From Candidatus Methylomirabilis limnetica (lineage in GTDB: Bacteria; Methylomirabilota; Methylomirabilia; Methylomirabilales; Methylomirabilaceae): 32,000 nt of DNA. Every line of letters begins with the position of its first letter. Position 1 is the first letter of the stretch. The position numbers were made by a program, and so were the translations under genes. The notes below the pieces were generated by a model. It had not been told where the DNA came from and did not search any database. It worked only from the letters and a program-made list of their open reading frames with translations. The stretch lies in the NCBI RefSeq assembly GCF_003044035.1, contig NZ_NVQC01000017.1, forward strand, positions 183,290 to 215,289, given 5' to 3'. This document shows, piece after piece, positions 7,761-30,156 of this stretch.

Positions 7761-7801
7761 CCGCGCAGCAAGCTGCGGGGTATCGTCTTCTGTTCTGGCC
7801 C

Positions 7802-7889: not shown

Positions 7890-8000
7890 GAACTCGCGGC
7901 AAGCCGCGGGGTATCAACCCTTAACGAAATGAAGTCGCGATTTGAGGAGATAAACTGAAGACGAGCTTTTAACGGTTCCAAGATTTCACGGAATAAGAGA

Positions 8001-8049: not shown

Positions 8050-8221
8050 GACGCCTCGGATGGCCATTGTGTCAAGCGACCCCATGGGGCCTTTCCACTT
8101 TTGGCCTTCCTGGCTTTGTGATTTTAGCAACCTCCTGAGGAGAAGTCTAGTTTCGTTTCACTTAGAAGACACAGGGGCAACCGTAAAATGGAGGGGAGAA
8201 ACTTGAGGGAGGGATTTCCTT

Positions 8222-9328: not shown

Positions 9329-9372
9329 TCCACTGACCCAAACAGGCGTCGAGGAACCTAAAGGAGGAAGAC

Positions 9373-10818: not shown

Positions 10819-10930
10819 CCGAAGCCGGGCAATCCTGAGAGTTGGGTGAGGCGGGGGAACCGAAGAGTGACCAGTTGGTCGCCTCGCGCCCCCCTCACCC
10901 CATCCCTAACGCTGTCAAGGAGATAAGGTT

Positions 10931-11979: not shown

Positions 11980-12004
11980 AAAACTTGAGATCAGGAGGGA
12001 TATC

Positions 12005-14145: not shown

Positions 14146-14403
14146 ACCGGCCTAGTAGCTCTGTTGTGCGCATGGGTGGTTGGGGTATGGCGCGTTGATA
14201 CTCCGCCCGCTGTATGAGATGTGGGGAAAAGGCTGGGAGCACCGATCTCCTCGGTCCTCACGAGCCCTATGCCCATGAGATCCCGACCCCACTAGTCATT
14301 CGGGAGGATGTAAAGTTAGAGTACGGTGAGCGCCGTCCCACCGTTGGATGGGCTACGCTATCGAGATGTCAGGAGAGAGCTATCCGTTGACGGGTTGGCG
14401 TGA

Positions 14404-14748
14404 TCACATCAGGTCCCCGAGCGGCCCGAGCGACAGGTTGAGGTCGTCCTCGGCGAGGCCGAAGTGTGCCCGGAGTTCCACCATCTTCTCCTCCAGCCGG
14501 ATGAAGGTCACCCCCATCCGCTCGATCTCCTCGGAGGTGAGGGAGCCCCCCTCCATCCTTCGAAGGGCCTGACGCTCGAGAAGCTTTCTGAGGAGTTCGA
14601 TGAGGGTGAGCACGAGCTTGGCCAGCCCCTGCTCGACCTTCTCAGGGTCGGCGTTGATCCGTCTCGGCAGGGCCTGGGTGAGCTGCTCCAGCTCCCCCTC
14701 AAACTCCGCCAGAGAGCTCTCAGGCGCCGAGAGTGTCTTTGGTTTCAT
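14404..14748 (-). CDS. gvpK: Gas vesicle protein GvpK
   Basis: RINADPEKVEQGLAKLVLTLIELLRKLLERQALRRMEGGSLTSEEIERMGVTFIRLEEKMVELRAHFGL..DDLNLSLGPLGDLM is the conserved GvpK core. I chose the start at the internal Met (MKPKT, 14748), giving a 29-nt overlap with the upstream gvpF/L gene. The ORF track extends to 14844. Confidence 0.85.
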   Translation of the reverse strand: MKPKTLSAPESSLAEFEGELEQLTQALPRRINADPEKVEQGLAKLVLTLIELLRKLLERQALRRMEGGSLTSEEIERMGVTFIRLEEKMVELRAHFGLAEDDLNLSLGPLGDLM

Positions 14749-15448
14749 CGTGGGCTCCGTTGACGAAGTGGTAGGGAGGCCAGGGGCCGGTGAGGAGGAA
14801 GCTAAGGCGGGGAAACTCTTCCCGGATCTTTGCCACGCCTTCACGGAAGGCGTCCACTCGATCCCGCTCCACCAGATAGGCCCCGGTGAGAAGCAGCCGC
14901 TCTGTGGGGAACCGCTGGAGCCGGCTTTCCCCAGCCAGGGAGGGGAAAGAGGCCTGGAGCTCCTGAATCAACCGCTCCCCCGCCGCTCGAAACCTAGCCC
15001 GATGCCGCTCCTCCGTAAGCCTCCTGTGGAGGTATTCCGTTCCAGGGCCTTCATCGCTAGTCTTTTGATCCACCGCCGTGGCGGAGTCACCAGGCGGTTC
15101 CCAGAGCACCCTGAGCCCCAGCTCCACCTTTCCTGTCACCCGCTCCAGCGCAGAGCGGAATGGCCGAGCGCGTTCGTTGAGGAGCGCGATCGCAGCATCC
15201 TCAGTTCTGAAGAGCGTGTTGAAGCGGGCGGGAAGGACAGGGCGGGAGATCATCACCTCCTCTAGCACCGTCTCGTGGAGGGTCAGGTGGTCTTCGTCGA
15301 CGGGCCATAGGGTGAGCGGCGACCGGCTGACCACAGCGGCTAGGTCCCCCTGCGGAACAAGGAAGACGGGACGCCTCCCGAGCCCAACGATCTGCTGTAA
15401 CAGCGGCGGGGGGAAGGCGACGATCCCGTAAAGGTAGATCCCCTCCAT
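14720..15448 (-). CDS. GvpL/GvpF-family gas vesicle protein (paralogue 5)
   Basis: 242 aa. It has the N-terminal YLYGIV, the VLPARFNT motif, KVELGLRVLW and the C-terminal LTGPWPPYHFV, all hallmarks of GvpL/GvpF. Confidence 0.85.
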   Translation of the reverse strand: MEGIYLYGIVAFPPPLLQQIVGLGRRPVFLVPQGDLAAVVSRSPLTLWPVDEDHLTLHETVLEEVMISRPVLPARFNTLFRTEDAAIALLNERARPFRSALERVTGKVELGLRVLWEPPGDSATAVDQKTSDEGPGTEYLHRRLTEERHRARFRAAGERLIQELQASFPSLAGESRLQRFPTERLLLTGAYLVERDRVDAFREGVAKIREEFPRLSFLLTGPWPPYHFVNGAHDETKDTLGA

Positions 15449-15451
15449 GGC

Positions 15452-15661
15452 TCACTCCTCGACGCTCTTAACACCCCATTCCCTAGCCGTTTCCACAGAG
15501 CAGAGGAGGAGCCGGAGACCAACATAGATGAGGTCCACATCGGCTACGGATAGGGTCACATCCCCCGCTACCACGACGCCCTTGTTGAGGAGGCGGTCCA
15601 GCGTCTCGAGGAGCGTGACCTGCCGTTCCAGGCTGGAAGCAGGCCGGCCGTTATCCTTCAT
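15452..15661 (-). CDS. Short GvpA-family paralogue (GvpM/GvpS-like)
   Basis: The core is TLLETLDRLLNKGVVVAGDVTLSVADVDLIYVGLRLLLCSVETA, the GvpA/J/M alpha-beta-beta-alpha core. I set the start at Met 15661 (69 aa), just overlapping the upstream gene end. The ORF track extends to 15733. Confidence 0.75.
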   Translation of the reverse strand: MKDNGRPASSLERQVTLLETLDRLLNKGVVVAGDVTLSVADVDLIYVGLRLLLCSVETAREWGVKSVEE

Positions 15662-16454
15662 CGTCAAGCCTCGGGACAAAGTGGTATGGTGGCCAGGGGC
15701 CCGAGACAACGAGCCTGAAGGCTTCTTCGGCATGGCTCTGGTTCCACTGCTCCACCCCGGAGAGGAGGTCCTCCACTCCCTCCCGCCTCACGAGACAGGC
15801 CAGATTAAGCACGATCCTCTCCCCCTCTCTGGCCTCGGGGAGGATGGAAGGATACTCCACCAGCTCCACCACTTTCCCCCGGAGGGCCTCCAGCGCCTGA
15901 CTGGCAAGCGCATCTTCACGCTCCTGGGATTTCGTCGAGGCGCTCTCCTCGATTTTTCTCTTGAGGAAGAATGCCAGCCCGGGCGGTTTAGTGCTTGCCT
16001 CGCGGGCCAAGGCAAGGAGCGCCGCATCGTTCTTGAGCACGGCGGCTCGAAGGGCCGTCCGGTCCGCGAACCCCTTCACGCCCCACTCGACCTTATCTCT
16101 CAGGAACTCCAGGGCCTCTTGGATGCGCCGAGTATTCCTCCGAATGACCGACCGGATCGTCCCCGCGTCAAGGAAGATAGTGCCAAACCTCATCGGGAGA
16201 AGCGGACCCGTGGCCAGAGCCGACTCCACGATCGACTCGTGAAGGCGCACTTTCTCCTCCAGCCAAGAGGGGTCCTCCAGGTTGCGGCGGAGAGCCTCCT
16301 CCCCGAACTCGGTCAGGGGGACCGGGCTGGACAGTGCCACGATCCCGTTCTCGGCGATGAGGCTCAAAGGAGAGTGCCCGTCGATTCCCATCATTGGCGG
16401 CAGGTCTCCGTGGGGGGAAAAAGCATAGAGGTACCAGCCAATCTCGGAAGGCAT
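15651..16454 (-). CDS. GvpL/GvpF-family gas vesicle protein (paralogue 4)
   Basis: WYLYAF..., LLPMRFGTIF, KVEWGVKGF and the C-terminal VSGPWPPYHFV. The start at 16454 forms an ATGA overlap with the upstream stop. The ORF track extends to 16475. Confidence 0.85.
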   Translation of the reverse strand: MPSEIGWYLYAFSPHGDLPPMMGIDGHSPLSLIAENGIVALSSPVPLTEFGEEALRRNLEDPSWLEEKVRLHESIVESALATGPLLPMRFGTIFLDAGTIRSVIRRNTRRIQEALEFLRDKVEWGVKGFADRTALRAAVLKNDAALLALAREASTKPPGLAFFLKRKIEESASTKSQEREDALASQALEALRGKVVELVEYPSILPEAREGERIVLNLACLVRREGVEDLLSGVEQWNQSHAEEAFRLVVSGPWPPYHFVPRLDDEG

Positions 16455-17068
16455 CAGCGCTCCTTTGCGTCCCACAGTGGGAGCCGATCGATGAGAAACT
16501 CCACCTGGATTCCCTCTGGCAGGAGCCGATCCACTTCGTGCATCATCCCCAGGAAGAGGAGAGCCACTTCACCCTCCTCCAGGGTCTCGGCAATCCGCTG
16601 GGCGATGAAGGTGTCCCGCGCCTTCAGGATCTCCGCGCTCTCAGCAGCGTAGCTCCGCTTGGCCTCTTCCCGCTCGGCGTCTGTCTGGGCCTCGGTGATC
16701 TGCTTAACGTGGGCGTACTCTCGAAGTAAGAGCTCTGGTGACTCGGTCCCAATCAGCTTCGCCCCCTTGTCAACCAGCTCAAGGACGATCTGGTAGTTCT
16801 TACTCCCCTGGGCTGCCACACCCCGCGCAATCTCCAGCTCTTTCCCCGAGACGGGCAGGCCGTCCTGATAGATCCTGACCCGCTCCCACGGGAGATTCCT
16901 GATCAGGAGCTTCGCCCTGATCCCCTCCCAGACATCATCAATGACCCGTCGGCTCCGCTCCCAGCTTTCGACCCCGAATCGTCTGATGGACTCCTGCCGG
17001 AGCGCCTCCGACTTGGACCCCATATCCGCCATGGTGTGAATGATGGGGACGTAGATGAGCCGCCTCAT
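16454..17068 (-). CDS. Conserved-looking hypothetical protein embedded in the gvp operon (no family recognised)
   Basis: 204 aa from MRRLIYVPIIHTMADMGS..., starting 4 nt after the CheY stop (translational coupling). It has no TM segments or signal peptide. There is a weak, unverified resemblance to the TraB/GumN/ChaN fold (N-terminal IHT, C-terminal LLFLGMMHEVDRLLPEG). Confidence 0.55.
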   Translation of the reverse strand: MRRLIYVPIIHTMADMGSKSEALRQESIRRFGVESWERSRRVIDDVWEGIRAKLLIRNLPWERVRIYQDGLPVSGKELEIARGVAAQGSKNYQIVLELVDKGAKLIGTESPELLLREYAHVKQITEAQTDAEREEAKRSYAAESAEILKARDTFIAQRIAETLEEGEVALLFLGMMHEVDRLLPEGIQVEFLIDRLPLWDAKER

Positions 17069-17072
17069 CGCG

Positions 17073-20540
<3,468 letters not shown>

Positions 20541-20544
<4 letters not shown>

Positions 20545-21056
20545 GCGCTCTTGCCGGCCTTAGCGACAGTGACCTCCAGGATGCCGTTCCGGTAGGAGGT
20601 CTTCAGCGATTCCTGCTTTCCCTTGGCAGGGAGGAGAATCTCTTTGCTGTACTTCCGGTCCTTGCCCTCGGCGGAGATGGTGAGAATGTCATCTTTCAGC
20701 TCTACCCGGACGTCACCGGTATCCACTCCGGGCATCTCGGCAATCACTCGGATGGCCTCGTTCTCATCGAAGACGTCTACCAGCGGCTCCCGCACCTCCT
20801 CGACCACGGCCCCCGCTTCGCCCTTCTTGATGTTGCCGAAGGTCTCGACGGTGGGTTCGCCCCCCAGGCCGACCTTGACGTTGAAGCCGTACACTCCTCT
20901 CAGATCTTTAAGCCGCCCTTTCCCCCTGAGCTCCCCCGTGCGAGTCGTCTCGGTCTTCCCCTCCGCCTCCATCTCCTTGAGGAGCTCGATGAGGTCGCCA
21001 ATTCCCTTGAAGAGGTCGCCGAGGCCGAATCCCGCTCCACCTTTTCGCTCTGTCAT
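20541..21056 (-). CDS. Hsp20/alpha-crystallin-family small heat-shock protein (GvpH-like position)
   Basis: The alpha-crystallin domain reads VIAEMPGVDTGDVRVELKDDILTISAEGKDRKYSKEILLPA...YRNGILEVTV. I set the start at Met 21056 (MTERKGG), preceded by GGGAGGAAG. The ORF track extends to 21104 and would overlap gvpJ. Confidence 0.85.
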
Positions 21057-21072
21057 ATCTTCCTCCCATGCC

Positions 21073-21366
21073 TTACCCGCCGAGGCGGGCCTCAAGTCGG
21101 TCAAGCCGCTCCTTGAGTTGATGGTTCTCCTCTTCCAGGACCCTGGCCTTCGAGGAGAGGGCGGGGTCGCTCTGCCACCAGTCGATTCCCATCTCCTTGG
21201 CCTTCTCCACCGAGGCGACCAGGAGCCGGATCTTGATGGTCAACAACTCGACGTCGGCGAGGCAGATCTTGATGTCGCCGGCGATGACGATCCCCTTGTC
21301 GAGGACCCGTTCCAGGATGTCAGCCAGGCTGGTGGTCTGGATGCTGTGGGGGATGTTCTGTGGCAT
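21073..21366 (-). CDS. gvpJ: Gas vesicle protein GvpJ (GvpA-family paralogue with a C-terminal coiled-coil extension)
   Basis: SLADILERVLDKGIVIAGDIKICLADVELLTIKIRLLVASVEKAKEMGIDWW is the GvpA/J core with the GvpJ-typical GIDWW. The tail is charged and helical (LEEENHQLKERLDRLEARL). Confidence 0.85.
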   Translation of the reverse strand: MPQNIPHSIQTTSLADILERVLDKGIVIAGDIKICLADVELLTIKIRLLVASVEKAKEMGIDWWQSDPALSSKARVLEEENHQLKERLDRLEARLGG

Positions 21367-21375
21367 GTCGTCCCC

Positions 21376-21570
21376 CTACCGTCCCACTCTGGCCGGCTCG
21401 ACCCTCGCCCCGCAGGACGGACAGAACTTGTAGTCATCCTTGTAGATGTACCGCCACGTTCCCCCGCACTCGGGGCATCGCCGTGTTAACGGCTCCCCGC
21501 ACTTCGTGCAATGCTTGAGCGCCCCCCACGTCGTCTCCCCACACCCCGGACACTTGAATGACCCTACCAT
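21376..21570 (-). CDS. Double zinc-ribbon protein
   Basis: 64 aa from MVGSFK, with four CxxC pairs: CPGC...CTKC...CPEC...CPSC. I set the start at Met 21570, 5 nt after the gvpG stop. The ORF track extends to 21603. Confidence 0.6.
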   Translation of the reverse strand: MVGSFKCPGCGETTWGALKHCTKCGEPLTRRCPECGGTWRYIYKDDYKFCPSCGARVEPARVGR

Positions 21571-21574
21571 AGCG

Positions 21575-21907
21575 TTACACCTCCCCTTCATGCGGGGGCC
21601 CACCGCTGCCAGTCACGGCATCGCCCCCACCGGTCTCCGCAGGGCCTGGCACCGCCTCACCTCCCGCCAACTCCACCTCTTCGTCGGCCTGCCGGACGGC
21701 ATTGAGCCTCGCCTCCCATTCCGCTGCTTGCACAGTGTACTCCGCCTCGCCGATCTCGTCCATCTCGTAGAGGAGTTGGAGTTCCAGGAGCTTTTCCTGG
21801 ATGTACCCCTCATCGTTCTGCTCCCGGTCGGCCATCTCGTGGATCTTCTCGAAGACGCCGATGAGGCCCTTGAAGGGGAGCGCGATGAGATCGTCAATGA
21901 GGAGCAT
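21575..21907 (-). CDS. gvpG: Gas vesicle protein GvpG
   Basis: MLLIDDLIALPFKGLIGVFEKIHEMADRE...IQEKLLELQLLYEMDEIGEAEY matches the conserved GvpG N-terminus and the EL...E.GEI..EEY motif. AGGAGAGG SD. Confidence 0.8.
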   Translation of the reverse strand: MLLIDDLIALPFKGLIGVFEKIHEMADREQNDEGYIQEKLLELQLLYEMDEIGEAEYTVQAAEWEARLNAVRQADEEVELAGGEAVPGPAETGGGDAVTGSGGPPHEGEV

Positions 21908-21918
21908 GAATTCCTCTC

Positions 21919-22662
21919 CTAGACCTGAATGACCAGGTTCACGAAGTTGAAGGGGGGGAACCCCCCCACATACTTGAACCTGACCATCTCCCGATACCGC
22001 TCAGCCAGCTCGTCCATTCTCCGATCAAAGGCCGCCTCCTGGTCCCGGTCTATCAGGAAGGCCGCATTCATGATCATCCGCTCCCCCAGGAGCCGATTGG
22101 TCAGGCGGAAGTCGTGACAGGCCCCCTTCAGCGCCTCCACGATCTCCTCCCGGACTCTATCCTTCTCGACCTTAAGGGCCGCCTCCACCATCCTCCCAAC
22201 CTCGACAAGCTGCCAGTGGGCCTGCTGGGGAGGCAGTTTGGCGATGGCCTCTTTCCGCCTCCGGATCTCCCCGTATCGCTCGAGAATCTCTTGGTATATG
22301 AGCGTTTCGTTGAAGATCGCCTTCACCCCCACCTCCACCTTTCCGCGCATCCGCTCCAGGAGGCCCCTGAACTCGACATACTCCCGCTCCAGGATGGCCC
22401 GCACCCTCGCTTCGTTCTCGGCAATAGTGCAGAATCGGGCGGGCAGGACAGTATGGCATTTGAAGACGGCCTCAATGGCCCGCTCGTGAACCAGCGAGTT
22501 CTCCCGAGAGACGGGATAGCGCATGACGGGGGAGTCGCTCACGATGGCTGCAATGTCGCGATACGCGATGGCGGTCAACTCATCATCCCGGCCGCCGATT
22601 CCTAAAAGGCCGAAGCTCTCCTCTCGAGCCTCATCCGTGACGCAATAGATGTACTTTCCCAT
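21919..22662 (-). CDS. GvpL/GvpF-family gas vesicle protein (paralogue 3)
   Basis: From MGKYIYCV...: VLPARFCTI, KVEVGVKAIF and the C-terminal YVGGFPPFNFV. I set the start at Met 22662. The ORF track extends to 22713, overlapping the upstream gene. Confidence 0.85.
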   Translation of the reverse strand: MGKYIYCVTDEAREESFGLLGIGGRDDELTAIAYRDIAAIVSDSPVMRYPVSRENSLVHERAIEAVFKCHTVLPARFCTIAENEARVRAILEREYVEFRGLLERMRGKVEVGVKAIFNETLIYQEILERYGEIRRRKEAIAKLPPQQAHWQLVEVGRMVEAALKVEKDRVREEIVEALKGACHDFRLTNRLLGERMIMNAAFLIDRDQEAAFDRRMDELAERYREMVRFKYVGGFPPFNFVNLVIQV

Positions 22663-22681
22663 AGAGGAAATCCCTTCTGAG

Positions 22682-23434
22682 TCACTCGTCAGGGTGGAGG
22701 ATGATGTTGACAAAGTTGTAAGGGGGGACTGGCCCCACGTAGGCGAACTTCACGCGTTCCCGGTATCGAAGGGACAGCCGCTCCATCTGGTCGTCGAACT
22801 CCTTCTCCCTGGCCCGATCCACCAGGAATGCAGCGTTGAGGAACATCCTGTCGCCGACGGTCGCGTTGAGACGGTGCTCCGCAGCCAGACGCCTCAATAC
22901 CCAGAGGATCTGCTCTCCCTCCCCCTCCTTCTTCGCCTCCAGGGCGGCCTGGACCATCTTGCCGATGGCGATCCGCTGAGGATGGGTCTGACGGGACGGC
23001 TGCCTGGCGATCTCCGCCTTCAGATGCTTAATCGCCTCGTTCTCATCCACGATCTCCTGGAAGAGGAGATCCATCTCCCGCCAGAAGGCCTTCACCCCCA
23101 GCTCCACCTTCCCGTCCAGGTCTCGCAGGAGATGTTTCAGTTCCTGGTACCGCCGCTCCAGGAGCTGCCGGATCTCCTCAGCGTTCTGGGCGACAGTGCA
23201 GTATCTGACCGGGAGGACAGTATGCTCGTTCATGACTCGCTCCAGTACCCGCTCATGGGCCAGGAGGTTCGCCTTGCTGACCTCATACTTGCGCAAGGGT
23301 GCAGTACTCATGACCGCGCTGAGATCCCGGTAGGCGATGGTCTCGACCTCCCGGCCGCCCAGGCCGATGGGGCCGAAGTTCCTTTCCTCGTTGGTCCCGA
23401 TGATCGCATACAGGTACTTCCCCTCCTCACGCAC
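22682..23434 (-). CDS. GvpL/GvpF-family gas vesicle protein (paralogue 2)
   Basis: GKYLYAIIG, VLPVRYCTV, KVELGVKAFW and YVGPVPPYNFV. The GTG start overlaps the upstream stop by 8 nt. Confidence 0.85.
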   Translation of the reverse strand: MREEGKYLYAIIGTNEERNFGPIGLGGREVETIAYRDLSAVMSTAPLRKYEVSKANLLAHERVLERVMNEHTVLPVRYCTVAQNAEEIRQLLERRYQELKHLLRDLDGKVELGVKAFWREMDLLFQEIVDENEAIKHLKAEIARQPSRQTHPQRIAIGKMVQAALEAKKEGEGEQILWVLRRLAAEHRLNATVGDRMFLNAAFLVDRAREKEFDDQMERLSLRYRERVKFAYVGPVPPYNFVNIILHPDE

Positions 23435-24479
23435 CGGCGGGCTCCTGAGACAATTGAAAGAGTTTTACTGCCACAGTGTCCAGGACGTCTGGCGCGCGAA
23501 AGGATGAGCCCACCTGGCTGTATTCCCCCAGAAGCCGGTAGGCCCGCGTCACCGCCTCGAATGCGCCGTTGGCCTTCTGGCCGACCTTGCCCCCATCGGA
23601 GATAAGGTCTGGATGGCACTGCTGGACGAGCCGCCGGTAGGCCTCCTTGGCATCCTGAAGGGTGGCCTGTTCCCCCAGTTCCAAGAGCCGCCGCGCGGAG
23701 TCAATCTCCTCAAACTCGAATGACCTGACCTCAACGGTGGCAAAACTGTATGGGGGAAGTGGCCCCACGCAGCGAAAATCGATGGCGTTGTCGTATCGGT
23801 TGTTCAGCCGCTCCAGAGCCTTGCCGACTTCTCCTTCCCTGTCCCTGTCCACCAAGAAGGCGGTGTTCAGGATCATTCGATCGTCCAGAAGAGCATGAGG
23901 GCAGAGGCCGTGGGCCAAGGGCTTGAGGGCTAGGGCGATCTCAGCGCCCAGGGCCTCCCGTCGCTGATCCAGCCGGACCTTGACCATCTGACCGACTCTG
24001 ATCCGTTCTTCCGTGGTCTCCTGCGGGGACCGGTCCGCGATTGCGGCCCTGTTCTGCCTGATCTCCGGCTCTTCGCCGATCTGCCGTAACACCGAAATGA
24101 GGTCGCGCCACTGGGCCACCAGGTTGAGCTCAATCTTCCCCTCCATAGCCTCCAGGGCGGCCGTAAGCTGGGGGTAGCCTGACTCCAGGATCTTCCGCAC
24201 CCGGGCCTCATCCCGAGCCATAGTCCCGAACTTCACGGGTACCACTGTCTGGCGCTTCATGACCTGCTCGAGGACGACCTGATGGGTGAAGAGGTATGGG
24301 ATGACCTCCTCCTTCTTCATGGACTTGTAGGCCCGGATAGGAGTGAGGCTGACGAGAGCTGTCAGACCGCGATGGCAGACGTCTGAGACCTGACGCCCAT
24401 CGAGGCCGATCAGGCCGGAGTCTACCTGCACGCCATTCCCGAGAACACAGTAGAGGTGGAGGGCTTCCATAATTATCAT
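23427..24479 (-). CDS. GvpL/GvpF-family domain fused to a C-terminal DnaJ J-domain
   Basis: The N-terminal roughly 255 aa read LHLYCVLG, VVPVKFGTM, KIELNLVAQW and CVGPLPPYSFATV. The C-terminal part, LELGEQATLQDAKEAYRRLVQQCHPDLISDGG...AFEAVTRAYRLLGEY, has an intact HPD tripeptide. The start at 24479 forms an ATGA overlap with the zinc-finger gene stop. Confidence 0.85.
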   Translation of the reverse strand: MIIMEALHLYCVLGNGVQVDSGLIGLDGRQVSDVCHRGLTALVSLTPIRAYKSMKKEEVIPYLFTHQVVLEQVMKRQTVVPVKFGTMARDEARVRKILESGYPQLTAALEAMEGKIELNLVAQWRDLISVLRQIGEEPEIRQNRAAIADRSPQETTEERIRVGQMVKVRLDQRREALGAEIALALKPLAHGLCPHALLDDRMILNTAFLVDRDREGEVGKALERLNNRYDNAIDFRCVGPLPPYSFATVEVRSFEFEEIDSARRLLELGEQATLQDAKEAYRRLVQQCHPDLISDGGKVGQKANGAFEAVTRAYRLLGEYSQVGSSFRAPDVLDTVAVKLFQLSQEPAGA

Positions 24480-24877
24480 CCCTTCGCTTGGACGAGTGCC
24501 TGGACAACGCCCTTGCCGCGGCACGCCAGGCAGGGGAGCTTGCTGTTGGCCTCAATCCCGCTGCCCCGGCACTGGCGGCATTCGGTGAAGGGCTCTTTGA
24601 CGGGGACGACCCCTTTGCCCCGACAGACAATGCAAGTAATGTTGGTCTGGGGATTGGCCTCACCCCTTCCACCGCAATAGGCGCAGATGATAGCCGGTGG
24701 GTCAACTTCCACACTGCCTGCACCCCGGCAGACGGGGCATTGGATCCCCTTCGAGCGGGGGAGGACTCCGGTCCCGCGACAGAAGGCGCAGGAGAAGATC
24801 CTCCCCGGGACGACCTCTCGCCCCCTCTTTGCGGCCGTCCCCCTCCGCCAGGAGCCCCACTCCATCAGCTTCATCAT
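24476..24877 (-). CDS. DnaJ-type cysteine-rich zinc-finger protein (six CxxCxGxG repeats), paralogue 1
   Basis: 133 aa with CAFCRGTG, CPVCRGAG, CAYCGGRG, CIVCRGKG, CRQCRGSG and CLACRGKG. This is the CxxCxGxG repeat of the DnaJ central domain, present six times with no J-domain or C-terminal client-binding domain. Confidence 0.8.
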   Translation of the reverse strand: MMKLMEWGSWRRGTAAKRGREVVPGRIFSCAFCRGTGVLPRSKGIQCPVCRGAGSVEVDPPAIICAYCGGRGEANPQTNITCIVCRGKGVVPVKEPFTECRQCRGSGIEANSKLPCLACRGKGVVQALVQAKG

Positions 24878-24906
24878 GATACCCTATCCCCTCCCCAGTG
24901 ATCTCA

Positions 24907-25227
24907 TCAGTAGTTCATGGAGAACGTTTTCCACTTCTTCGCGGGGGCGTTCCGCGCTGTTGCCGTTTCCCCTGCATTGCTGGGGCGTTCTGACTGAGCC
25001 GGCCGCTCCAGGTCCTCCATCTGCCGATGGATATCAGAGAGACGCTTCTGGATTCCCTGGCTGCGCTTGGCCAGGAGGGCCGCCTCCTTGTCGAGCCGCC
25101 CCTTCTCCACCCGCAGCATGTAGAGCTCGAGGTAGGTGGACCCCTGCCTCCGGGGTATGGCGCGCTGGCCGGTGGTGTGCAGGCTCCGGATGTCCCGGAG
25201 CCCAGTGACGTCCGTGACCCCTCTCAT
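24907..25227 (-). CDS. Hypothetical coiled-coil protein in the gvp operon
   Basis: 106 aa with a GGGAGG SD. The central predicted helix is STYLELYMLRVEKGRLDKEAALLAKRSQGIQKRLSDIHRQMEDLE. I recognise no family. Confidence 0.5.
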   Translation of the reverse strand: MRGVTDVTGLRDIRSLHTTGQRAIPRRQGSTYLELYMLRVEKGRLDKEAALLAKRSQGIQKRLSDIHRQMEDLERPAQSERPSNAGETATARNAPAKKWKTFSMNY

Positions 25228-25240
25228 GGCTGCCTCCCGA

Positions 25241-25408
25241 TCACCGGGCGCTCTCGCGCGCGGAGAGTAGAAGCTGCTTCTTCTTGCTGGCCCCCACCAC
25301 CTTCAACTCCACCAGTTGGCCGGCCTTGAGCCCCACTTCCAGCCGGATGTTGTTGGGGATGGAGAGCTTCCCATCGGCGTCTACCTTTGCAAAGGCTCGC
25401 ATCAGCAT
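25241..25408 (-). CDS. Unlisted 55-aa AbrB/SpoVT/MazE-fold (swapped-hairpin) protein
   Basis: Below the 60-aa ORF-track cutoff. A GGAGGTGG SD lies 6 nt before the ATG at 25408. The translation is MLMRAFAKVDADGKLSIPNNIRLEVGLKAGQLVELKVVGASKKKQLLLSARESAR*. It matches the SpoVT-AbrB signature (k.d..Gr.sIP..iR..lgl..Gd.vel) and exactly fills the gvpN/next-gene gap. Confidence 0.6.
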   Translation of the reverse strand: MLMRAFAKVDADGKLSIPNNIRLEVGLKAGQLVELKVVGASKKKQLLLSARESAR

Positions 25409-25423
25409 CAGAGCCACCTCCCC

Positions 25424-26344
25424 TCAGCAGTATTGTTTGACGATCTTCTTCACCAGCTCCCTGACCTTGGCCTGATTGCTCTTGCTCCCCACCCGACTCG
25501 TCTCCGAGGCCAGAATGTCCTGGCAGACCTGCCGGAAGACTCCACTGGACCCCTTGACGTGGCCATTGAGCACCGTGAGGGATCTGGCGATCATGATCGC
25601 GCCGCGGACGGTGGGAGAGAATTCACACGCTCCCGACTCCCGGAGGGCCCGGACGACCTTGACGATCTTCTCCGCCTCCTTCCGGGGGAGACCGGACTTA
25701 GCCTGGGTGATGGCGGCCTCCGTTTCCTCATCGAAGTGGTCCAAGTCCATGGTGATCATTCGGTCGCGGAGGGCATCCTGGCTCCGGTGGACGCCGGCGT
25801 ACTCCTCGGGGTTCGAGGTGAAGATCGCCGTGAAGTTCGGATCGACCCTCAAGTAGGTCTCCTCCCCCCCACGACGGATGGGGAGGTCCAGCATCCGCTC
25901 CTGGAGAATGGCGAGAAAGATGTTGTTGGCCTCGGGCCGGGAGCGGGTGAACTCGTCGTAGATGAGGGTGAAGCCGTACTTGCAGGCAATGGTGAGGCGG
26001 TTATCGACCCACCGCTTGACCATGTCTTCCTCGACCTTCAGGACCCGGGAAACGAAGCGGTCAATGACCTTCCTCAGGTGATAGCCGTACTCTCCTCCCA
26101 CCAGGTCCGAGGTGGTGTACTCTTCGTCGCCGTGGATTAGCACGACAGGACGTTCGAGCTTCGAGGCCACATGGAGGGCCAGGGTGGTCTTGCCCGTGCC
26201 GGAGGCCCCCCGGAAGTGAATCGGGAAGCCCGCCTTGATATAGCCCATGGCCCGTTCGGTGAGGTCTTTGACATGCTTTGTTTCCACAAAATCCGGCAAC
26301 GGGGCAGGCTCGATGACCGTGCTGAGTTCCTCTATACCTCTCAT
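25424..26344 (-). CDS. gvpN: Gas vesicle protein GvpN (AAA+ ATPase)
   Basis: 306 aa. FVETKHVKDLTERAMGYIKAGFPIHFRGASGTGKTTLALHVA...RPVVLIHGD and Walker B LIYDEFTRS match the characteristic GvpN sequence. AGGAGG SD. Confidence 0.9.
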   Translation of the reverse strand: MRGIEELSTVIEPAPLPDFVETKHVKDLTERAMGYIKAGFPIHFRGASGTGKTTLALHVASKLERPVVLIHGDEEYTTSDLVGGEYGYHLRKVIDRFVSRVLKVEEDMVKRWVDNRLTIACKYGFTLIYDEFTRSRPEANNIFLAILQERMLDLPIRRGGEETYLRVDPNFTAIFTSNPEEYAGVHRSQDALRDRMITMDLDHFDEETEAAITQAKSGLPRKEAEKIVKVVRALRESGACEFSPTVRGAIMIARSLTVLNGHVKGSSGVFRQVCQDILASETSRVGSKSNQAKVRELVKKIVKQYC

Positions 26345-26353
26345 GGATACCTC

Positions 26354-26692
26354 CTATACAGGGAGCGCAGGACGGCGGGGGATCGCGCCTCTCCCACGGC
26401 AGTGAGTGCATGGAAGGCCATTCCCAGCGGTGCGCCCGCTTCCCCGGCAGTCAGGGCACGCTTCTCCGGGTCCCCCGAATCGCACGACTCCCTTTCCCCC
26501 GCAGACCTGGCACGTGACCCTCATGCCATAGGGCTGGATCCCGCTCCCGCGACAGTAGACGCACATCCCATTGGGCTCCTCGACCATGACCGTACCTTTT
26601 CCCCCGCAGACCTGGCACCTGGACAGGCGCGAGAGGCAGTTAAAGGGGTCGGACCCCTTCCCCTGGCAGAAGGCGCACCGGATTGCCGTCAT
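26354..26692 (-). CDS. DnaJ-type cysteine-rich zinc-finger protein (six CxxCxGxG repeats), paralogue 2
   Basis: 112 aa with CAFCQGKG, CQVCGGKG, CVYCRGSG, CQVCGGKG, CPDCRGSG and CTHCRGRG. Confidence 0.8.
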   Translation of the reverse strand: MTAIRCAFCQGKGSDPFNCLSRLSRCQVCGGKGTVMVEEPNGMCVYCRGSGIQPYGMRVTCQVCGGKGVVRFGGPGEACPDCRGSGRTAGNGLPCTHCRGRGAIPRRPALPV

Positions 26693-27287
26693 CTCTTCCC
26701 CCGTTTACTCTCCCGGCGCAGCACCGGGATTGAATGGCTCTGAGGGTGGCCTTGAACTCTTTGACCCTGACGGGGCCACCGTTGGACAGAAGCCCCTGCA
26801 AGGCCCGGGTTAGCTCCTCCTGCTCGCCTTGGAACTCGGCCAGGAGGGTCTTGACTTCCCGCTCCCGCTCTTCACGCCTGGCCGTGATCTCTTCCAGCAG
26901 TTCCTTGAGACCGCCGACCCGTTGCGCTTCACCCCTGGCCAGGGCTTCCCGCAGGGTGGCGGCCAGTGTCCTCTGTTCATGGAGGTAGTGCTTCATCGTC
27001 CCCCTGACCGCTTCCTCCCGCTCCCGTTGGTGGGCGAGGACCCCCTCCATCATGGCATCGAAGTCCCGCCTCCGGAGGGAGGCGGCCCTGGCTAGGGCCT
27101 CCTTGAGCTGGGCCCGCATCTCTTCTCGCTGGCTTCGAAACGTTCCCAGCATCTCGTGGGTGGACTCGACGATCTGCTCCACCGACGAGACCCTGGCCTC
27201 GTAGGAGGCGATGACCTCCCGGGCCAGGAGCGCCATCTCCTCCCCCCTTCCCATCGGGCTTACCTGAACGCTTCTCTTTCCTCTCAA
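26640..27287 (-). CDS. Arg/Glu-rich coiled-coil protein with an internal ~50-aa duplication (GvpC-analogue candidate), paralogue B
   Basis: The 215-aa ORF has a TTG start at 27287; ATG alternatives are at 27254 and 27236. The internal repeat pairs QLKEALARAASLRRRDF...HQREREEAV with TLREALARGEAQRVGGL...ARREEREREV. The N-terminal third is paralogous to 27298-27792. The 3' end overlaps the next gene by 53 nt. Confidence 0.55.
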   Translation of the reverse strand: MRGKRSVQVSPMGRGEEMALLAREVIASYEARVSSVEQIVESTHEMLGTFRSQREEMRAQLKEALARAASLRRRDFDAMMEGVLAHQREREEAVRGTMKHYLHEQRTLAATLREALARGEAQRVGGLKELLEEITARREEREREVKTLLAEFQGEQEELTRALQGLLSNGGPVRVKEFKATLRAIQSRCCAGRVNGGRDDGNPVRLLPGEGVRPL

Positions 27288-27297
27288 CTCTTCCCTC

Positions 27298-27792
27298 TCA
27301 TCTGCCGCCGGCGCGCTTCCCCGCCATCGTGGCGGTCATATTCCGCCAATGACCAGCCATGGCCTCCTGCTCCCGGCGAAAGCCAGCCAGCATGCCTCCG
27401 ACCTCCTGGGCCCGCTGCTCGCTCCCGCGGTAGAAGCGATTCATGAGTTCGGCGGTTTCCCCACTTCTCTCCTCCTGGCGAGCCCGAATACCCTGGTGCA
27501 TCGCCCGGAAGTCTCTCAGCCGGGTAGACTCGGAAGTGCTGAGGAATCGCTTGAGGTCCGCTGCCTTCCGCCTGAGGTCGTGGCGAAACTCCTTCAGCTT
27601 TGCCGCGGTCTCATCCCTCAGCGCCGCCACCCTTGCCACTCGTGTGTCGAACGAATTGACGATCTCCTGGGCCAGATCCCGCATATCCTCGGCCAGTGTC
27701 ATTGTGCCGACCCTCCCTTCTTGCGTCATCCCCTCCTGGGGGAAGAAGTGAACCCTTTCAGGAGCTCTCTTTCCTTTTTTCTTCGATCCCAT
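27298..27792 (-). CDS. Arg/Glu-rich coiled-coil protein (GvpC-analogue candidate), paralogue A
   Basis: LAQEIVNSFDTRVARVAALRDETAAKLKEFRHDLRRKAADLKRFLSTSESTRLRDFRAMHQGI aligns with LAREVIASYEARVSSVEQIVESTHEMLGTFRSQREEMRAQLKEALARAASLRRRDFDAMMEGV of the next gene. I set the start at ATG 27792 (GGGAGGGG SD). The ORF track extends to a GTG at 27912 that has no SD. Confidence 0.5.
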   Translation of the reverse strand: MGSKKKGKRAPERVHFFPQEGMTQEGRVGTMTLAEDMRDLAQEIVNSFDTRVARVAALRDETAAKLKEFRHDLRRKAADLKRFLSTSESTRLRDFRAMHQGIRARQEERSGETAELMNRFYRGSEQRAQEVGGMLAGFRREQEAMAGHWRNMTATMAGKRAGGR

Positions 27793-27928
27793 GTTCCCCT
27801 CCCAGGGCGTTAACACGCCCCACGTGTCCTCAGGTTGGACTAGAGGGAGATCCTGGCGAGGCATACTCTCTGCGGTTGTCCGCTCAAGGATGCCCCGGCA
27901 GACACCCCTCACTGGTTCCAGGCCGACC

Positions 27929-28144
27929 TTACGCCGGTGCCGCCGCTGTAGCGGTCAGGCCGATGGCCTCAGCATACTTCAGGTACGTCTCGACGGAGGC
28001 CACCACCACCCGGGCCTCGATAGCCAGGAGCTCGATCCCAACCAGGGAGACGCGCACCCAGGCATCGATGACCACACCCTTGTCCAGGATCCGATCGATC
28101 ACCTCAACCAGACTTGACGACGCGATTGCCTTCTCCACTGCCAT
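27929..28144 (-). CDS. gvpA: Major gas vesicle structural protein GvpA
   Basis: [63 protein letters not shown] is near-identical to the universal GvpA consensus. An AAGGAGGTGA SD lies 6 nt before the ATG at 28144. The ORF track starts at a TTG at 28150. Confidence 0.95.
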
Positions 28145-28205: not shown

Positions 28206-28580
28206 CTATACGCCCTCCCTGATGGCACGCTTCAGGAGGGTCGTGACGTGATGGAGTTCAAAGGGCTTGCTGATGAAGCCCTGGAAATCGCCTCTCCTTA
28301 TCCCCTCCACGATTGGCTGATCCTCCTCGTAGTGGTAACCCGAGATCATCAGGATTGGCAGCCGGGGAACAAGCCGCCGGATGACGTGAGAGACCTCGAT
28401 ACCGCTCATGCCGGGGAGTTTCACGTCGATGATGGCAGCGTCAAACCTCCGCCCTTGCACCTGACGCATCGCATCCTCCCCACGGTAGACGTGGGTAATG
28501 TGGACCCCCTCGTCCTTCAGGCCTATCTGTAGGGCCCAACAAATGTCCTTTTCGTCATCCACGACGAGGACCTCAAGCAT
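28206..28580 (-). CDS. Stand-alone CheY-like response-regulator receiver domain
   Basis: 124 aa with VLVVDDEKD, the phospho-acceptor AAIIDVKLPGMSG, S (LMISGY) and K (FISKPF). The ATG overlaps the kinase stop by 8 nt. Confidence 0.85.
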   Translation of the reverse strand: MLEVLVVDDEKDICWALQIGLKDEGVHITHVYRGEDAMRQVQGRRFDAAIIDVKLPGMSGIEVSHVIRRLVPRLPILMISGYHYEEDQPIVEGIRRGDFQGFISKPFELHHVTTLLKRAIREGV

Positions 28581-30078
28581 CTGAACCCTCCGCAGGCAGG
28601 ATGACAGTGAACGTCGAGCCCTTCCCTACCTCGCTCTCGACTCGGATCGTTCCCCCATGCTGGTGAACGAGGCTGTAGGCGATAGAGAGACCCAGCCCCG
28701 TCCCTTGCCCCACTGGCATGGTGGTGAAGAAGGGATCGAAGAGGCGGGAAAGGTGCTGCTCAGGGATGCCACGCCCGCTGTCTGCGAATCTGATCTCGAT
28801 TGCCGGCGGCAGAGTCGCCGGGGCAAGTCGGCTCTCGATGGCGAGCCGCCCTCCCTCTTCCATAGCGTAGTAGGCGTTCATGATGATATTCATGAACGCC
28901 TGCTGGAGCTGATTCTTGTTGCCCTTCACCTTCGGAAGCGCCGGGGACAACTGCTTGACGATCTCGATAGACTGAAGCGAGATCTGATGACCGATGAGGG
29001 AGAGCGTTTCCTCGACAGCGCTGTTCACATCCACTAGCTCGGACAGCCCCTGTGAAGGTCGAGCGAACCTGAGGAGGGTCTCGATGATGGCGGCGGCCCG
29101 AGCGGCGGCGAGGCGGATCTTCTCCGCGCACTCCTGCAGAAGCTCGGGGTCGTTCCCCTTTTTCAGGAGAATCTGAGCAGCCGAAGCGGTGATGGCCAAA
29201 GGATTCCGAATCTCGTGGGCGATGCCGCCAGCCATCTCTCCGAGGCTGGCCATCTTGGCTGATTGGATCAATTGGAGCTCCAGGCGCTGCTTTTCTGTCA
29301 GGTCGCGCCCCACCCCTACCAGGGCCACCACCCGACCGCCCTCCTCCTTCATAGCCGAAAAGCGCCAGGAGATGAGGCGCCTCTCGCCACCCTTCGCCTG
29401 TATCCCCGTCTCCATCTCCTGGGACTTCCCCTCCCTGGCGAGGTGGATGAGGAGGGCCTGAAGCTGAGGCCGATCGGGCTCGGTGAAGAAATCGGCGAAC
29501 TGCCTCTTGGTCACCTCCTGAGAGGAGAAACCCAGGATCCGCTGAGCAGCGCTATTCCAGGTCATCACTGCGCCGGCCGAATCCAGGGAAACAATCAGGT
29601 CGTTGGCGCTCTCCACTACGCTGGCCAAATGGCGCTCAACTTCTCGAACCCTCTTGCCCAGACTCTTCTTCTCCGTGACGTCGTCCATGAAGAGCATGAC
29701 GCTTTCTACTCGCCCCGCCTCGTCCTTCAGGGGTGTCAGACTATAAAAGTAGATGCGGGCGGCCAGTCCCGGAGCTCGATACTCCATCTCGCCTCCCTCA
29801 AAAGGCTGCGCGGTCAGGCAGACTGTCCGGGCCCGCCCCTCAAGGTCGGTGTAGTGGAGGATCGCAGGAGGAAAAATCTCGTTGAGCCTCTTCCCCAGCA
29901 CCTCCCTCTCTTCCTTCCGCATTTTGAGAAGAAAGTTTTCGTTGGCAAAGATCACCCTCAGGACTGTATCCATGACCAGGATGGAGGAGGGAATGTGAGC
30001 AACGATCTCCTGTTCCAGATTCGCGGCGGGAGCTTGCGTGGCGGTCATTTCACAAAGGGTCGTATTCTGCGGTTTCAC
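28573..30078 (-). CDS. Soluble PAS-domain sensor histidine kinase (NtrB-like HisKA/HATPase_c)
   Basis: 501 aa with a GTG start preceded by AAGGAG at 6 nt, and no TM segments. It has two PAS-like regions. The H-box is MAGGIAHEIRNPL, the N-box NIIMNAYYAM, the G1 box DSGRGI and the G2 box GTGLGLS. Confidence 0.9.
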   Translation of the reverse strand: MKPQNTTLCEMTATQAPAANLEQEIVAHIPSSILVMDTVLRVIFANENFLLKMRKEEREVLGKRLNEIFPPAILHYTDLEGRARTVCLTAQPFEGGEMEYRAPGLAARIYFYSLTPLKDEAGRVESVMLFMDDVTEKKSLGKRVREVERHLASVVESANDLIVSLDSAGAVMTWNSAAQRILGFSSQEVTKRQFADFFTEPDRPQLQALLIHLAREGKSQEMETGIQAKGGERRLISWRFSAMKEEGGRVVALVGVGRDLTEKQRLELQLIQSAKMASLGEMAGGIAHEIRNPLAITASAAQILLKKGNDPELLQECAEKIRLAAARAAAIIETLLRFARPSQGLSELVDVNSAVEETLSLIGHQISLQSIEIVKQLSPALPKVKGNKNQLQQAFMNIIMNAYYAMEEGGRLAIESRLAPATLPPAIEIRFADSGRGIPEQHLSRLFDPFFTTMPVGQGTGLGLSIAYSLVHQHGGTIRVESEVGKGSTFTVILPAEGSDA

Positions 30079-30140: not shown

Positions 30141-30156
30141 AGCAAGCGTGGTGCCA
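30141..30156 (-). promoter_or_regulatory. Sigma-54 (RpoN) -24/-12 promoter driving the kinase-regulator-gvpA transcription unit
   Basis: The minus strand reads TGGCACcacgcTTGCT, a perfect match to TGGCAC-N5-TTGCW. It lies about 60 nt upstream of the kinase GTG and downstream of a gene for an NtrC-type sigma-54 activator. Confidence 0.75.

Follow-up and report, generated by a model that had tools for sequence, protein, structure and literature searches.

Conserved chaperone and ATPase genes within the predicted gas-vesicle operon of Candidatus Methylomirabilis limnetica

The gas-vesicle (gvp) gene clusters of Halobacterium (gvpACNO/DEFGHIJKLM), Bacillus megaterium (gvpB-U), Anabaena and Serratia 39006 have gvpA, gvpN, gvpF/L, gvpG, genes of the gvpJ/M/S type and gvpK in common, and the same set occurs in the region analyzed here, nucleotides (nt) 14404-28144 of a 32,000-nt stretch of contig NZ_NVQC01000017.1 from Candidatus Methylomirabilis limnetica (the whole stretch is referred to as the window). 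In haloarchaea, GvpF binds monomeric GvpA, GvpL binds GvpJ and GvpM, and GvpH prevents the aggregation of GvpM, while the A, J and M proteins form inclusion bodies when made without chaperones (PMC9501494). The sequence of the M. limnetica gvp cluster is publicly available, and the cluster has already appeared in the literature; according to a review passage citing Graf et al. 2018, its gvpA/gvpLF/gvpN/gvpK genes were well transcribed in situ during the Lake Zug bloom (PMC11008690). Linkage of ArsA and Hsp20 to gvp genes was published in 2010, when Castillo & Saier described an arsA homolog and hsp20 in gvp clusters with four to five gvpL/F genes in Chlorobi, Bacteroidetes, Geobacter, cyanobacteria and an acidobacterium, and suggested that the products drive a step of biogenesis with ATP and act as chaperones; Cdc48, a J-domain fusion and zinc-finger proteins go unmentioned in that paper (PMC2963123). 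An Hsp20 near gvp genes was also noted in Hakubella (PMC7325909). In open-access papers and preprints we found no report of Cdc48, a fusion of GvpF/L to a J-domain, CxxCxGxG proteins or the other conserved unknowns described below as members of gvp clusters. A recent review mentions none of these genes and contains neither of the terms ArsA and Hsp20 (PMC9501494), and they are likewise not mentioned in the consulted portions of a 2024 structural review, where the solubilization of GvpA and its insertion into the growing shell are named as an open question (PMC10903477).

Compared with the classical clusters, the operon in the window contains eight to ten additional conserved genes, encoding a Cdc48-type ATPase, a Get3-type ArsA, a GvpF/L protein fused to a J-domain (J-fusion), two proteins with six CxxCxGxG motifs each, a double zinc-ribbon protein, an AbrB-like protein, a CheY-like receiver and two proteins of no known family, designated unk106 and unkC204. 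The window also encodes a small heat-shock protein that may correspond to the GvpH of classical clusters. Among the proteins of the window there was no Pfam match to GvpC or GvpO, and two novel helical paralogs occupy the position of gvpC. As detailed below, gene content and linkage conserved across phyla support the view that gas-vesicle clusters include the chaperone and ATPase genes as dedicated members.

Judged by its genes, the region represents a complete, single-operon gas-vesicle gene cluster, with gvpA-family genes, gvpN, gvpF/L, gvpG, gvpJ/M/S and gvpK at one locus and all above Pfam cutoffs. Family calls were made by Pfam and NCBIfam profile searches of open reading frames (ORFs), read against the curated cutoffs, and gene starts are those of the public gene calls on the identical contig, which carries the same gene set. 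The first-pass annotation, prepared by a model from the letters and a list of ORFs, had described about 24 abutting or overlapping minus-strand genes; we counted 23, every one on the minus strand (Table 1), with spacings of -53 to +136 nt between neighbors apart from the gvpF/L-gvpK junction. At that junction the overlap is 29 nt with the 114-amino acid (aa) gvpK start, which was chosen by length analogy with the 114-aa ortholog in the related locus L005, and 125 nt with the longest ORF. Many starts and stops overlap by 1, 4 or 8 nt, consistent with translational coupling, and the gvpA start is preceded by a strong ribosome-binding site (AAGGAGG). The Gas_vesicle family of Pfam was matched three times in the operon (GvpA, a GvpJ-like protein and a 69-aa GvpM/S-like protein) and GvpL_GvpF five times, with E-values of 1e-56 to 1e-71. 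The gvp core named in the first-pass annotation was thus recovered above cutoffs, and the profile searches also bore out its calls of Hsp20, ArsA/Get3, a double AAA+ ATPase of the Cdc48 type, GvpF/L-J, two six-motif zinc-finger proteins, a double zinc ribbon and CheY.

Linkage of these genes to the gvp core was surveyed by scanning the GvpN of the window against one genome per species, which gave 80 loci (L008-L087) with GvpN 72-93% identical to the query, all of them metagenome or single-cell assemblies. Loci were annotated by phmmer searches of the window proteins against six-frame ORFs, a procedure that under-detects short, divergent genes; the double zinc-ribbon gene, for example, was seen by Pfam in L005-L007 and rarely by phmmer. 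Components were counted in the 42 of these loci with at least 7 kb downstream of gvpN, whereas features on the gvpA side (histidine kinase, helical unknowns and the zinc-finger gene before gvpN) were counted in 60 related loci. Since the 80 loci are the closest relatives by GvpN, the frequencies describe one GvpN clade rather than all gvp clusters. Within the 42 loci, unk106 was present in 42, Hsp20 in 41, Cdc48 in 40, the J-fusion in 39, ArsA in 33 and a CxxCxGxG zinc-finger protein in 29. These figures, from 29 to 42 of 42, clearly set the toolkit apart from a lineage-specific insertion with no linkage to gvp genes. Nearly all GvpN-anchored loci share the order gvpA, one to two helical unknowns, (zinc finger), gvpN, (AbrB-like), unk106, (zinc finger), Hsp20, ArsA, Cdc48, GvpF/L-J, two GvpF/L, gvpG, GvpF/L, gvpA-like, GvpF/L, gvpK and gvpA-like, where genes in brackets are not always present. 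The arrangement is far beyond chance, as the gene order repeats in dozens of independent contigs. It was found under about 19 phylum-level labels, almost all of uncultured bacteria, including Methylomirabilota, Nitrospirota, Nitrospinota, Planctomycetota, Omnitrophota, Elusimicrobiota, Ignavibacteria, Dehalococcoidia, Cloacimonadota, Thermodesulfobacteriota and several candidate phyla; the taxonomy assigned to metagenome bins can be in error. The exact GvpN sequence of the window is present on 13 public contigs, and its Cdc48 and unk106 match NCBI entries of M. limnetica (phylum NC10) at 100% identity.

The chaperone and ATPase genes also co-evolve with GvpN, with pairwise-distance correlations of r=0.84 for GvpN-Cdc48 and r=0.86 for Cdc48-ArsA. 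In the NC10 lineage an Hsp20-ArsA-Cdc48-CheY-unkC204 block follows gvpJ, and elsewhere Hsp20-ArsA-Cdc48 precedes the J-fusion; because its placement differs in this way, the Hsp20-ArsA-Cdc48 block moves as a unit. Each of the five Cdc48 relatives examined, 65-83% identical to the window protein, is encoded in a gvp cluster, among them those of Candidatus Hakubella (an actinobacterial lineage) and Desulfofundulus sp. TPOSR (Bacillota), and gvp-linked Cdc48 genes at 56-57% identity are carried on plasmids of the cultured methanotrophs Methylosinus sp. C49 and Methylocella tundrae T4. A Cdc48 that is 52% identical, from a Rhizobium plasmid (L094, Rhizobium leguminosarum pR132502), has no gvp neighbors. 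By sequence identity, the window Cdc48 falls in a bacterial subclade (at least ~56%) that occurs in gvp clusters, and more distant bacterial homologs are not gvp-linked. Conserved linkage across phyla, co-evolution, overlapping starts and stops and intact motifs together support one part of the earlier proposal, the dedication of the toolkit to gas vesicles; the pathway that it put forward, with holdase, targeting and unfoldase feeding or recycling GvpA, is hypothetical. The wide distribution of the arrangement goes beyond that proposal.

Several side observations concern the same genes. CDC48-family ATPases that are ~51% identical are encoded on many rhizobial, Methylobacterium and haloarchaeal plasmids that lack gvp genes, one Natrinema match overlaps an annotated Hsp20, and Hsp20 and Cdc48 may thus also form a module elsewhere than in gas-vesicle clusters. 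In Desulfofundulus sp. TPOSR (L088), three tandem gvpA genes of identical length (5444-6436) are followed by gvpN, an Hsp20 homolog, ArsA and Cdc48, and none of its GvpF/L genes received a J-domain call. Between bins assigned to very distant phyla (Planctomycetota, Omnitrophota, Elusimicrobiota, Dehalococcoidia, Nitrospirota and others), GvpN identity is 72-78%, which suggests that the protein is under extreme constraint or that the cluster in its entirety was repeatedly transferred horizontally. Gas-vesicle clusters with the proteostasis module are probably a widespread family that spread horizontally.

The predicted proteins were then compared with characterized relatives. The Hsp20 has an alpha-crystallin domain above the cutoffs of Pfam HSP20 (37.6 bits; cutoff 20.8) and NCBIfam NF041800 (159 bits; cutoff 140), and its best plasmid matches were the Hsp20 of the Octadecabacter arcticus gvp cluster and a Methylosinus protein named GvpH in RefSeq. 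Identity to the latter was 31% over 97% of the protein (6e-9), and the NCBIfam scan gave Hsp20-type models only. The first-pass annotation had placed Hsp20 outside the gvp core; the family call stood, and its place outside the gvp set is less clear, given the annotation of its Methylosinus homolog as GvpH. The ArsA matched Pfam ArsA_ATPase (2e-75), with chloroplast ARSA1 (5zme, 9e-74) and archaeal Get3 (3ug6, 7e-51) as the best PDB matches, and shares the ATPase core and the zinc CxxC with the GET/TRC40 proteins (yeast Get3, archaeal Get3 and ARSA1). Its C253-P-F-C256 aligns with the zinc-binding CDFC, CEFC and CPQC of the archaeal and Schizosaccharomyces pombe Get3 structures 3ug6, 3zq6 and 2woo. 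The CxxC is kept in 45 of 46 ArsA orthologs, and at 44 of 46 loci the protein is single-domain with a length of ~311-358 aa. In contrast, the gvp-linked ArsA described by Castillo & Saier in 2010 was a two-domain protein of ~600 aa (PMC2963123). A role in arsenic resistance was considered and rejected, as the protein has a single domain, scored 142 bits against a cutoff of 650 for TIGR04291, and has no ars genes near it in the window.

The Cdc48 has the Pfam architecture CDC48_N, CDC48_2, two AAA and two AAA_lid_3 domains, an N-D1-D2 organization shared with archaeal Cdc48/VAT, p97 and actinobacterial Cpa. Walker A motifs were located at residues 224 and 497, Walker B at 279 and 552, and RPGRFD at 338 and 612. 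Arginine fingers and aromatic pore loops are present in both rings (pore loops KFYG in D1 and KWVG in D2, with the ortholog pattern K[Y/W/F][V/I/L]G in D2), and these motifs are conserved across orthologs, Walker A in 47 of 48; from these motifs, both rings look catalytically competent. Unlike proteasome-activating Cdc48 of archaea, the protein has no C-terminal HbYX motif, ending instead in KGGAR, and the C-termini of its orthologs are varied. Proteasome docking is therefore not indicated, and a role as proteasome activator was rejected on account of the missing tail.

The J-domain of the J-fusion scored above the Pfam DnaJ cutoff (31.9 bits; cutoff 27.8). The match spans aa 280-333 of the scanned 365-aa longest ORF, equivalent to ~aa 265-318 of the 350-aa protein, and the HPD motif, within a typical helix II-HPD-helix III consensus, is present in all 47 orthologous J-fusions. 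An Hsp70 gene lies inside the gvp cluster of Candidatus Hakubella (L007) and of two Dehalococcoidia loci (L049 and L081), and would, on this circumstantial evidence, be a natural partner for the J-fusion. In each case the Hsp70 gene is at the end of the cluster (20977-22178 in L007 and the 3' ends of L049 and L081). The two zinc-finger proteins resemble BSD2, ZnJ2, PSA2 and anti-TRAP in being small, stand-alone CxxCxGxG-repeat proteins that lack a J-domain, and in plastids proteins of this type are reported to serve as client-specific assembly chaperones. Each window protein has six CxxCxGxG motifs where DnaJ has four, which we infer would form three zinc centers. A zinc-finger gene precedes gvpN in 41 of 60 loci, and the double zinc-ribbon gene keeps its position in L005, L006 and L007.

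We propose, with about an even chance of being right, that the module is a client-dedicated holdase and disaggregase system for the solubilization, delivery and rescue of the small, strongly hydrophobic proteins of the GvpA family. ATP-independent holdases (the GvpH-like Hsp20 and the two zinc-finger proteins) would first capture new or misassembled subunits of GvpA, GvpJ and GvpM/S, and a zinc-linked dimer of the Get3-type ArsA would then shield their hydrophobic segment in an ATP-controlled clamp. Next, GvpF/L would bind the client, and the J-domain of GvpF/L-J would bring the Hsp70 of the cell onto it. Since haloarchaeal GvpF and GvpL bind GvpA-family subunits, the J-fusion is most simply viewed as a client-specific J-protein that loads Hsp70. 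The Cdc48 hexamer would use its aromatic pore loops to thread protein that is aggregated, misassembled or derived from collapsed shells, and return it to the soluble pool, and GvpN with the GvpF/G/J/K/L core would build the shell as in classical systems. The same three chaperone classes make up the bi-chaperone system of small heat-shock proteins, Hsp70-J and ClpB (Hsp104), and some of the orthologous clusters add Hsp70. The window differs from that system in its AAA+ member, a Cdc48/VCP-type ATPase (double-psi barrel N-domain) instead of ClpB (M-domain), and in having a GvpF/L domain as the client-binding part of its J-protein.

A number of points weigh against this proposal. We infer the clients, the order of the steps and the direction of the module (assembly or rescue). 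Get3-style client binding is an extrapolation, because GvpA-family proteins are not tail-anchored membrane proteins; in contrast to the GET/TRC40 systems, the presumed clients are shell proteins of a soluble organelle, no Get1/Get2-like receptor or partner was recognized among the cluster genes, and the methionine content of the ArsA is low (1.9%). The grooves of eukaryotic Get3 are rich in methionine. To our knowledge, the clusters of Halobacterium, Bacillus megaterium, Anabaena and Serratia make vesicles without Cdc48 or a J-fusion, so the module is not universally needed. Even among the related loci, between a fifth and a third have no ArsA or no zinc-finger protein, and the sample is biased toward the closest GvpN relatives. 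Lastly, for the presence of the CheY receiver and a putative hydrolase beside Cdc48, regulated turnover is at least as good an explanation as assembly.

The last point leads to the main rival explanation, regulated dismantling, which seems doubtful but far from negligible. Here Cdc48, CheY and unkC204, a Tiki/TraB-like putative hydrolase, would carry out phospho-controlled extraction of GvpA from intact or collapsed vesicles; the extracted GvpA would be processed or degraded, giving active loss of buoyancy or clearance of shells, with Hsp20, ArsA and the zinc fingers holding the subunits. Gene order is in keeping with such a role. The CheY-like gene overlaps the Cdc48 stop by 4 nt, and Cdc48, CheY and unkC204 are contiguous and overlapping in the window as well as in L005, L006 and L090, while Hsp20, unkC204 and Cdc48 are neighbors in Methylocella and L089. 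Because one unkC204 homolog (P0177, 333 aa) is fused to a response-regulator receiver domain, the CheY gene and unkC204 are likely to be linked functionally. The pore loops of the Cdc48 are of the type found in threading unfoldases, and the 2024 review names as an open question whether vesicles are degraded at all and how this would be regulated (PMC10903477).

The nature of unkC204 is central to the dismantling explanation. Its AlphaFold2 model searched against PDB gave ChaN as the best match (E 0.1, template modeling score 0.37), which was not significant, and a profile search of PDB sequences returned nothing meaningful. Ten of 30 homologs weakly match TraB_PrgY_gumN, the best at E 4e-4 and below the Pfam cutoff; an hhalign comparison with PrgY gave E 9e-4 with a probability of 23% over the invariant RD...GxxH segment, and the homologs have invariant His, Glu, Arg and GxxH residues. 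Its weak resemblance to the Tiki/TraB/PrgY/ChaN/EreA superfamily lies in the alpha/beta fold and the R-D/GxxH segment; its length of ~200 aa and the lack of a transmembrane part are points of difference. On these convergent, weak similarities unkC204 is probably a remote Tiki/TraB/ChaN-superfamily hydrolase, a predicted assignment that lies below all curated thresholds and that was not part of the first-pass annotation. The dismantling explanation is further weakened by the detection of unkC204 in just 12 of 42 loci within 10-kb flanks, by the lack of any protease domain fused to, or universally paired with, Cdc48, and by the absence of the HbYX tail needed for proteasome docking. Moreover, the module shares an operon with the structural genes and is therefore expected to be made during vesicle building. 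The holdase and disaggregase proposal and regulated dismantling are not mutually exclusive.

Indeed, a broader scheme, which we regard as unlikely, would have vesicles both built and taken apart by an ATP-driven, signal-controlled machine. Cdc48, gated by CheY and aided by an adaptor-like unk106 and the Tiki/TraB-like hydrolase, would extract GvpA from the shell, and the Get3 homolog, the GvpH-type small heat-shock protein, the six-motif holdases and a GvpF/L-J/Hsp70 relay would hold and re-deliver the subunits. If true, this scheme would show for the first time that a bacterial protein organelle is disassembled and recycled enzymatically, and would provide the first non-membrane client class for a Get3-family ATPase.

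Less probable still is that the Get3-type ArsA acts in targeting or positioning, as a SIMIBI ATPase that delivers GvpG or GvpK to the nucleation site or spaces the vesicles, with Cdc48 and Hsp20 as a generic back-up against the aggregation stress of GvpA overproduction. The membership of the ArsA in the GET3/ArsA/TRC40 subfamily with its dimer zinc motif, the hydrophobic N-terminal helix seen in the GvpG sequence and the occurrence of Hsp20-Cdc48 pairs without ArsA in several gvp clusters are compatible with this idea, and an ArsA that energizes a biogenesis step was already proposed by Castillo & Saier in 2010 (PMC2963123). Set against it are the lack of a recognized Get1/Get2-like receptor or partner in the cluster and the status of ArsA as the least conserved of Hsp20, Cdc48 and ArsA (33 of 42 loci), and a generic back-up leaves the gvp-specific Cdc48 subclade that co-evolves with GvpN unexplained. 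Finally, it is very improbable that the chaperone genes are general stress genes hitch-hiking with a mobile gvp island and devoid of any vesicle-specific role: horizontal spread (GvpN 72-78% identical across many phyla, and plasmid copies) and the occurrence of bacterial Cdc48 outside gvp clusters would suit such passengers, but the genes are kept at 80-98% frequency in conserved order and overlapping frames under ~19 phylum-level labels, co-evolve with GvpN, and include a J-domain physically fused to a gvp-specific GvpF/L domain.

Four proteins of the operon, unkA164, unkB204, unk106 and unkC204, had no Pfam or NCBIfam family, in agreement with the four that the first-pass annotation could not place. 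The most widely conserved, unk106 (CLG94_06300), was found at every one of the 42 loci, directly 3' of gvpN or of the AbrB-like gene. Its N-terminal peptide is conserved, then come a central helix and a variable linker, and conservation is high again in the C-terminal KKWKTFSMNY motif, where W99 and the last residue, Y106, are invariant. The layout is reminiscent of AAA+ adaptors. One or two copies of unkA164/unkB204-type genes follow gvpA in 58 of 60 loci. For unkB204, Pfam and NCBIfam gave chance-level matches only (SMC, ferritin and DUF2383), a single-sequence AlphaFold2 model showed four long helices with a predicted local distance difference test (pLDDT) score of 74, and a fold search returned generic coiled coils and BAR domains and was uninformative. 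Both paralogs lie where gvpC is found in classical clusters and are helical throughout, with an internal repeat, and neither matched GvpC in Pfam or NCBIfam; with low confidence, we consider them candidate GvpC-like shell-binding proteins. The 3' end of unkB204 overlaps the start of the zinc-finger 1 gene by 53 nt in another frame (26640-26692), and its last ~20 residues are predicted to be disordered (pLDDT <50). The AbrB-fold call of the first-pass annotation was matched below threshold only, at 18.2 bits (cutoff 24.7) in Pfam and 20.6 bits (cutoff 28.3) in NCBIfam; the gene was found in 17 of 42 loci, and its homologs in L006 and L007 have weak precomputed matches.

Upstream of gvpA, sequence motifs and gene order suggest that a sigma-54 promoter drives the operon and is controlled by an NtrC-type activator together with a PAS kinase and a receiver, a form of control absent from the first-pass annotation. 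The -24/-12 element lies ~90 nt upstream of the histidine kinase start, between the activator and kinase genes, and is the sole zero-mismatch match in the window, where the chance expectation was estimated at ~0.03. The NtrC-type regulator is a candidate activator of the operon, and its gene is also found upstream in L005 and in the Methylosinus plasmid cluster, in which a sigma-54 regulator is annotated. A histidine kinase gene lies upstream of gvpA in 31 of 60 related loci, and a kinase and receiver pair precedes gvpA in about half; in the window, the receiver gene (28206-28580) overlaps the kinase stop by 8 nt. The combination of NtrC-type activator, kinase and receiver can be likened to the GvrA/GvrB/GvrC control of Serratia. 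Scans for sigma-70 promoters and terminators showed no enrichment over shuffled sequences and gave no useful site within the operon.

Table 1. Features of the gas-vesicle operon and its upstream region in the window, in order of transcription.
Feature	Position (nt)	Strand	Evidence
NtrC-type sigma-54 enhancer-binding response regulator	30561..31952	-	Pfam Response_reg + Sigma54_activat (1e-70) + HTH_8
Sigma-54 -24/-12 promoter, TGGCAC-N5-TTGCT, TGGCACCACGCTTGCT	30141..30156	-	zero-mismatch motif match
PAS-domain sensor histidine kinase	28573..30048	-	Pfam PAS_4, HisKA, HATPase_c
Stand-alone response-regulator receiver	28206..28580	-	Pfam Response_reg 4.7e-21
gvpA, major shell protein, 71 aa	27929..28144	-	Pfam Gas_vesicle 1.3e-16
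unkA164, helical protein A, 164 aa	27298..27792	-	paralog of unkB204, BLASTP 4e-12
unkB204, helical protein B, 204 aa	26640..27254	-	internal duplication ~110 aa
Zinc-finger protein 1, 112 aa, six CxxCxGxG	26354..26692	-	Pfam DnaJ_CXXCXGXG 1e-9, 39 bits (cutoff 32.7)
gvpN, AAA+ MoxR-like ATPase	25424..26344	-	Pfam AAA_5 2e-16
AbrB/MazE/SpoVT-like mini-protein, 55 aa	25241..25408	-	sub-threshold Pfam MazE_antitoxin 2.4e-3, TIGR01439 2.6e-4
unk106, 106 aa	24907..25227	-	no Pfam/NCBIfam family
Zinc-finger protein 2, 133 aa, six CxxCxGxG	24476..24877	-	Pfam DnaJ_CXXCXGXG 6e-13, 49 bits (cutoff 32.7); Anti-TRAP 1.5e-9
GvpF/L with C-terminal J-domain, 350 aa	23427..24479	-	Pfam GvpL_GvpF 1e-59 + DnaJ 1.4e-7
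GvpF/L paralog 2	22682..23434	-	Pfam GvpL_GvpF 4.8e-71
GvpF/L paralog 3	21919..22662	-	Pfam GvpL_GvpF 1.8e-61
gvpG	21575..21907	-	Pfam GvpG 1.4e-15
Double zinc-ribbon protein, 64 aa	21376..21570	-	Pfam DZR 1.1e-8
gvpJ-like GvpA-family protein, 97 aa	21073..21366	-	Pfam Gas_vesicle 1.6e-17
Hsp20, GvpH-like small heat-shock protein, 171 aa	20541..21056	-	Pfam HSP20 2.5e-9
Single-domain Get3/TRC40/ArsA-type ATPase, 318 aa	19588..20544	-	TIGR00345 256 bits (cutoff 135)
Cdc48/VCP-type double-ring AAA+ ATPase, 714 aa	17444..19588	-	TIGR01243 962 bits (cutoff 803)
CheY-like stand-alone receiver, 124 aa	17073..17447	-	Pfam Response_reg 1.9e-31
unkC204, alpha/beta protein, 204 aa	16454..17068	-	AlphaFold2 model pLDDT 88, predicted template modeling score 0.82
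GvpF/L paralog 4	15651..16454	-	Pfam GvpL_GvpF 3.3e-56
GvpM/S-like short GvpA-family protein, 69 aa	15452..15661	-	Pfam Gas_vesicle 1.1e-16
GvpF/L paralog 5	14720..15448	-	Pfam GvpL_GvpF 4.2e-57
gvpK, 114 aa from internal ATG; longest ORF to 14844	14404..14748	-	Pfam GvpK 8.7e-34

On the far side of gvpK, the window has a methyltransferase gene on the opposite strand, and in the two NC10-related clusters L005 (15306-15887) and L006 (14653-15345) a gene for a soluble lytic transglycosylase lies directly 3' of gvpK. In L090, a 5.6-Mb contig with the gene order of the window, gvpK is followed by two unannotated genes (14065-14427 and downstream) and, further on, by a KaiB-family gene and very large PAS/GAF sensor kinases. 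The plus-strand segment at 2991-13153 of the window is unrelated to the gvp operon; it encodes Fur, an iron-type ABC transporter (binding protein, permease and ATPase), ApbE, a multicopper oxidase and three proteins without a Pfam family.

Taken as a whole, this family of clusters provides conserved candidate proteins for the solubility and delivery of GvpA and for the degradation of vesicles. Experiments are feasible, since orthologous clusters are carried by plasmids of Methylosinus sp. C49 and Methylocella tundrae T4 and by a 1.69-Mb contig of Desulfofundulus sp. TPOSR. Gas vesicles are in use as genetically encoded ultrasound reporters, and a dedicated chaperone set might improve their heterologous expression. 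In these clusters, bacteria would also have recruited ATPases of the Cdc48 and Get3 types to an organelle with a protein shell. Because the arrangement is found under ~19 phylum-level labels, almost all of them uncultured, these results suggest that buoyancy control is commoner in bacteria of groundwater and anoxic waters than culture work indicates.

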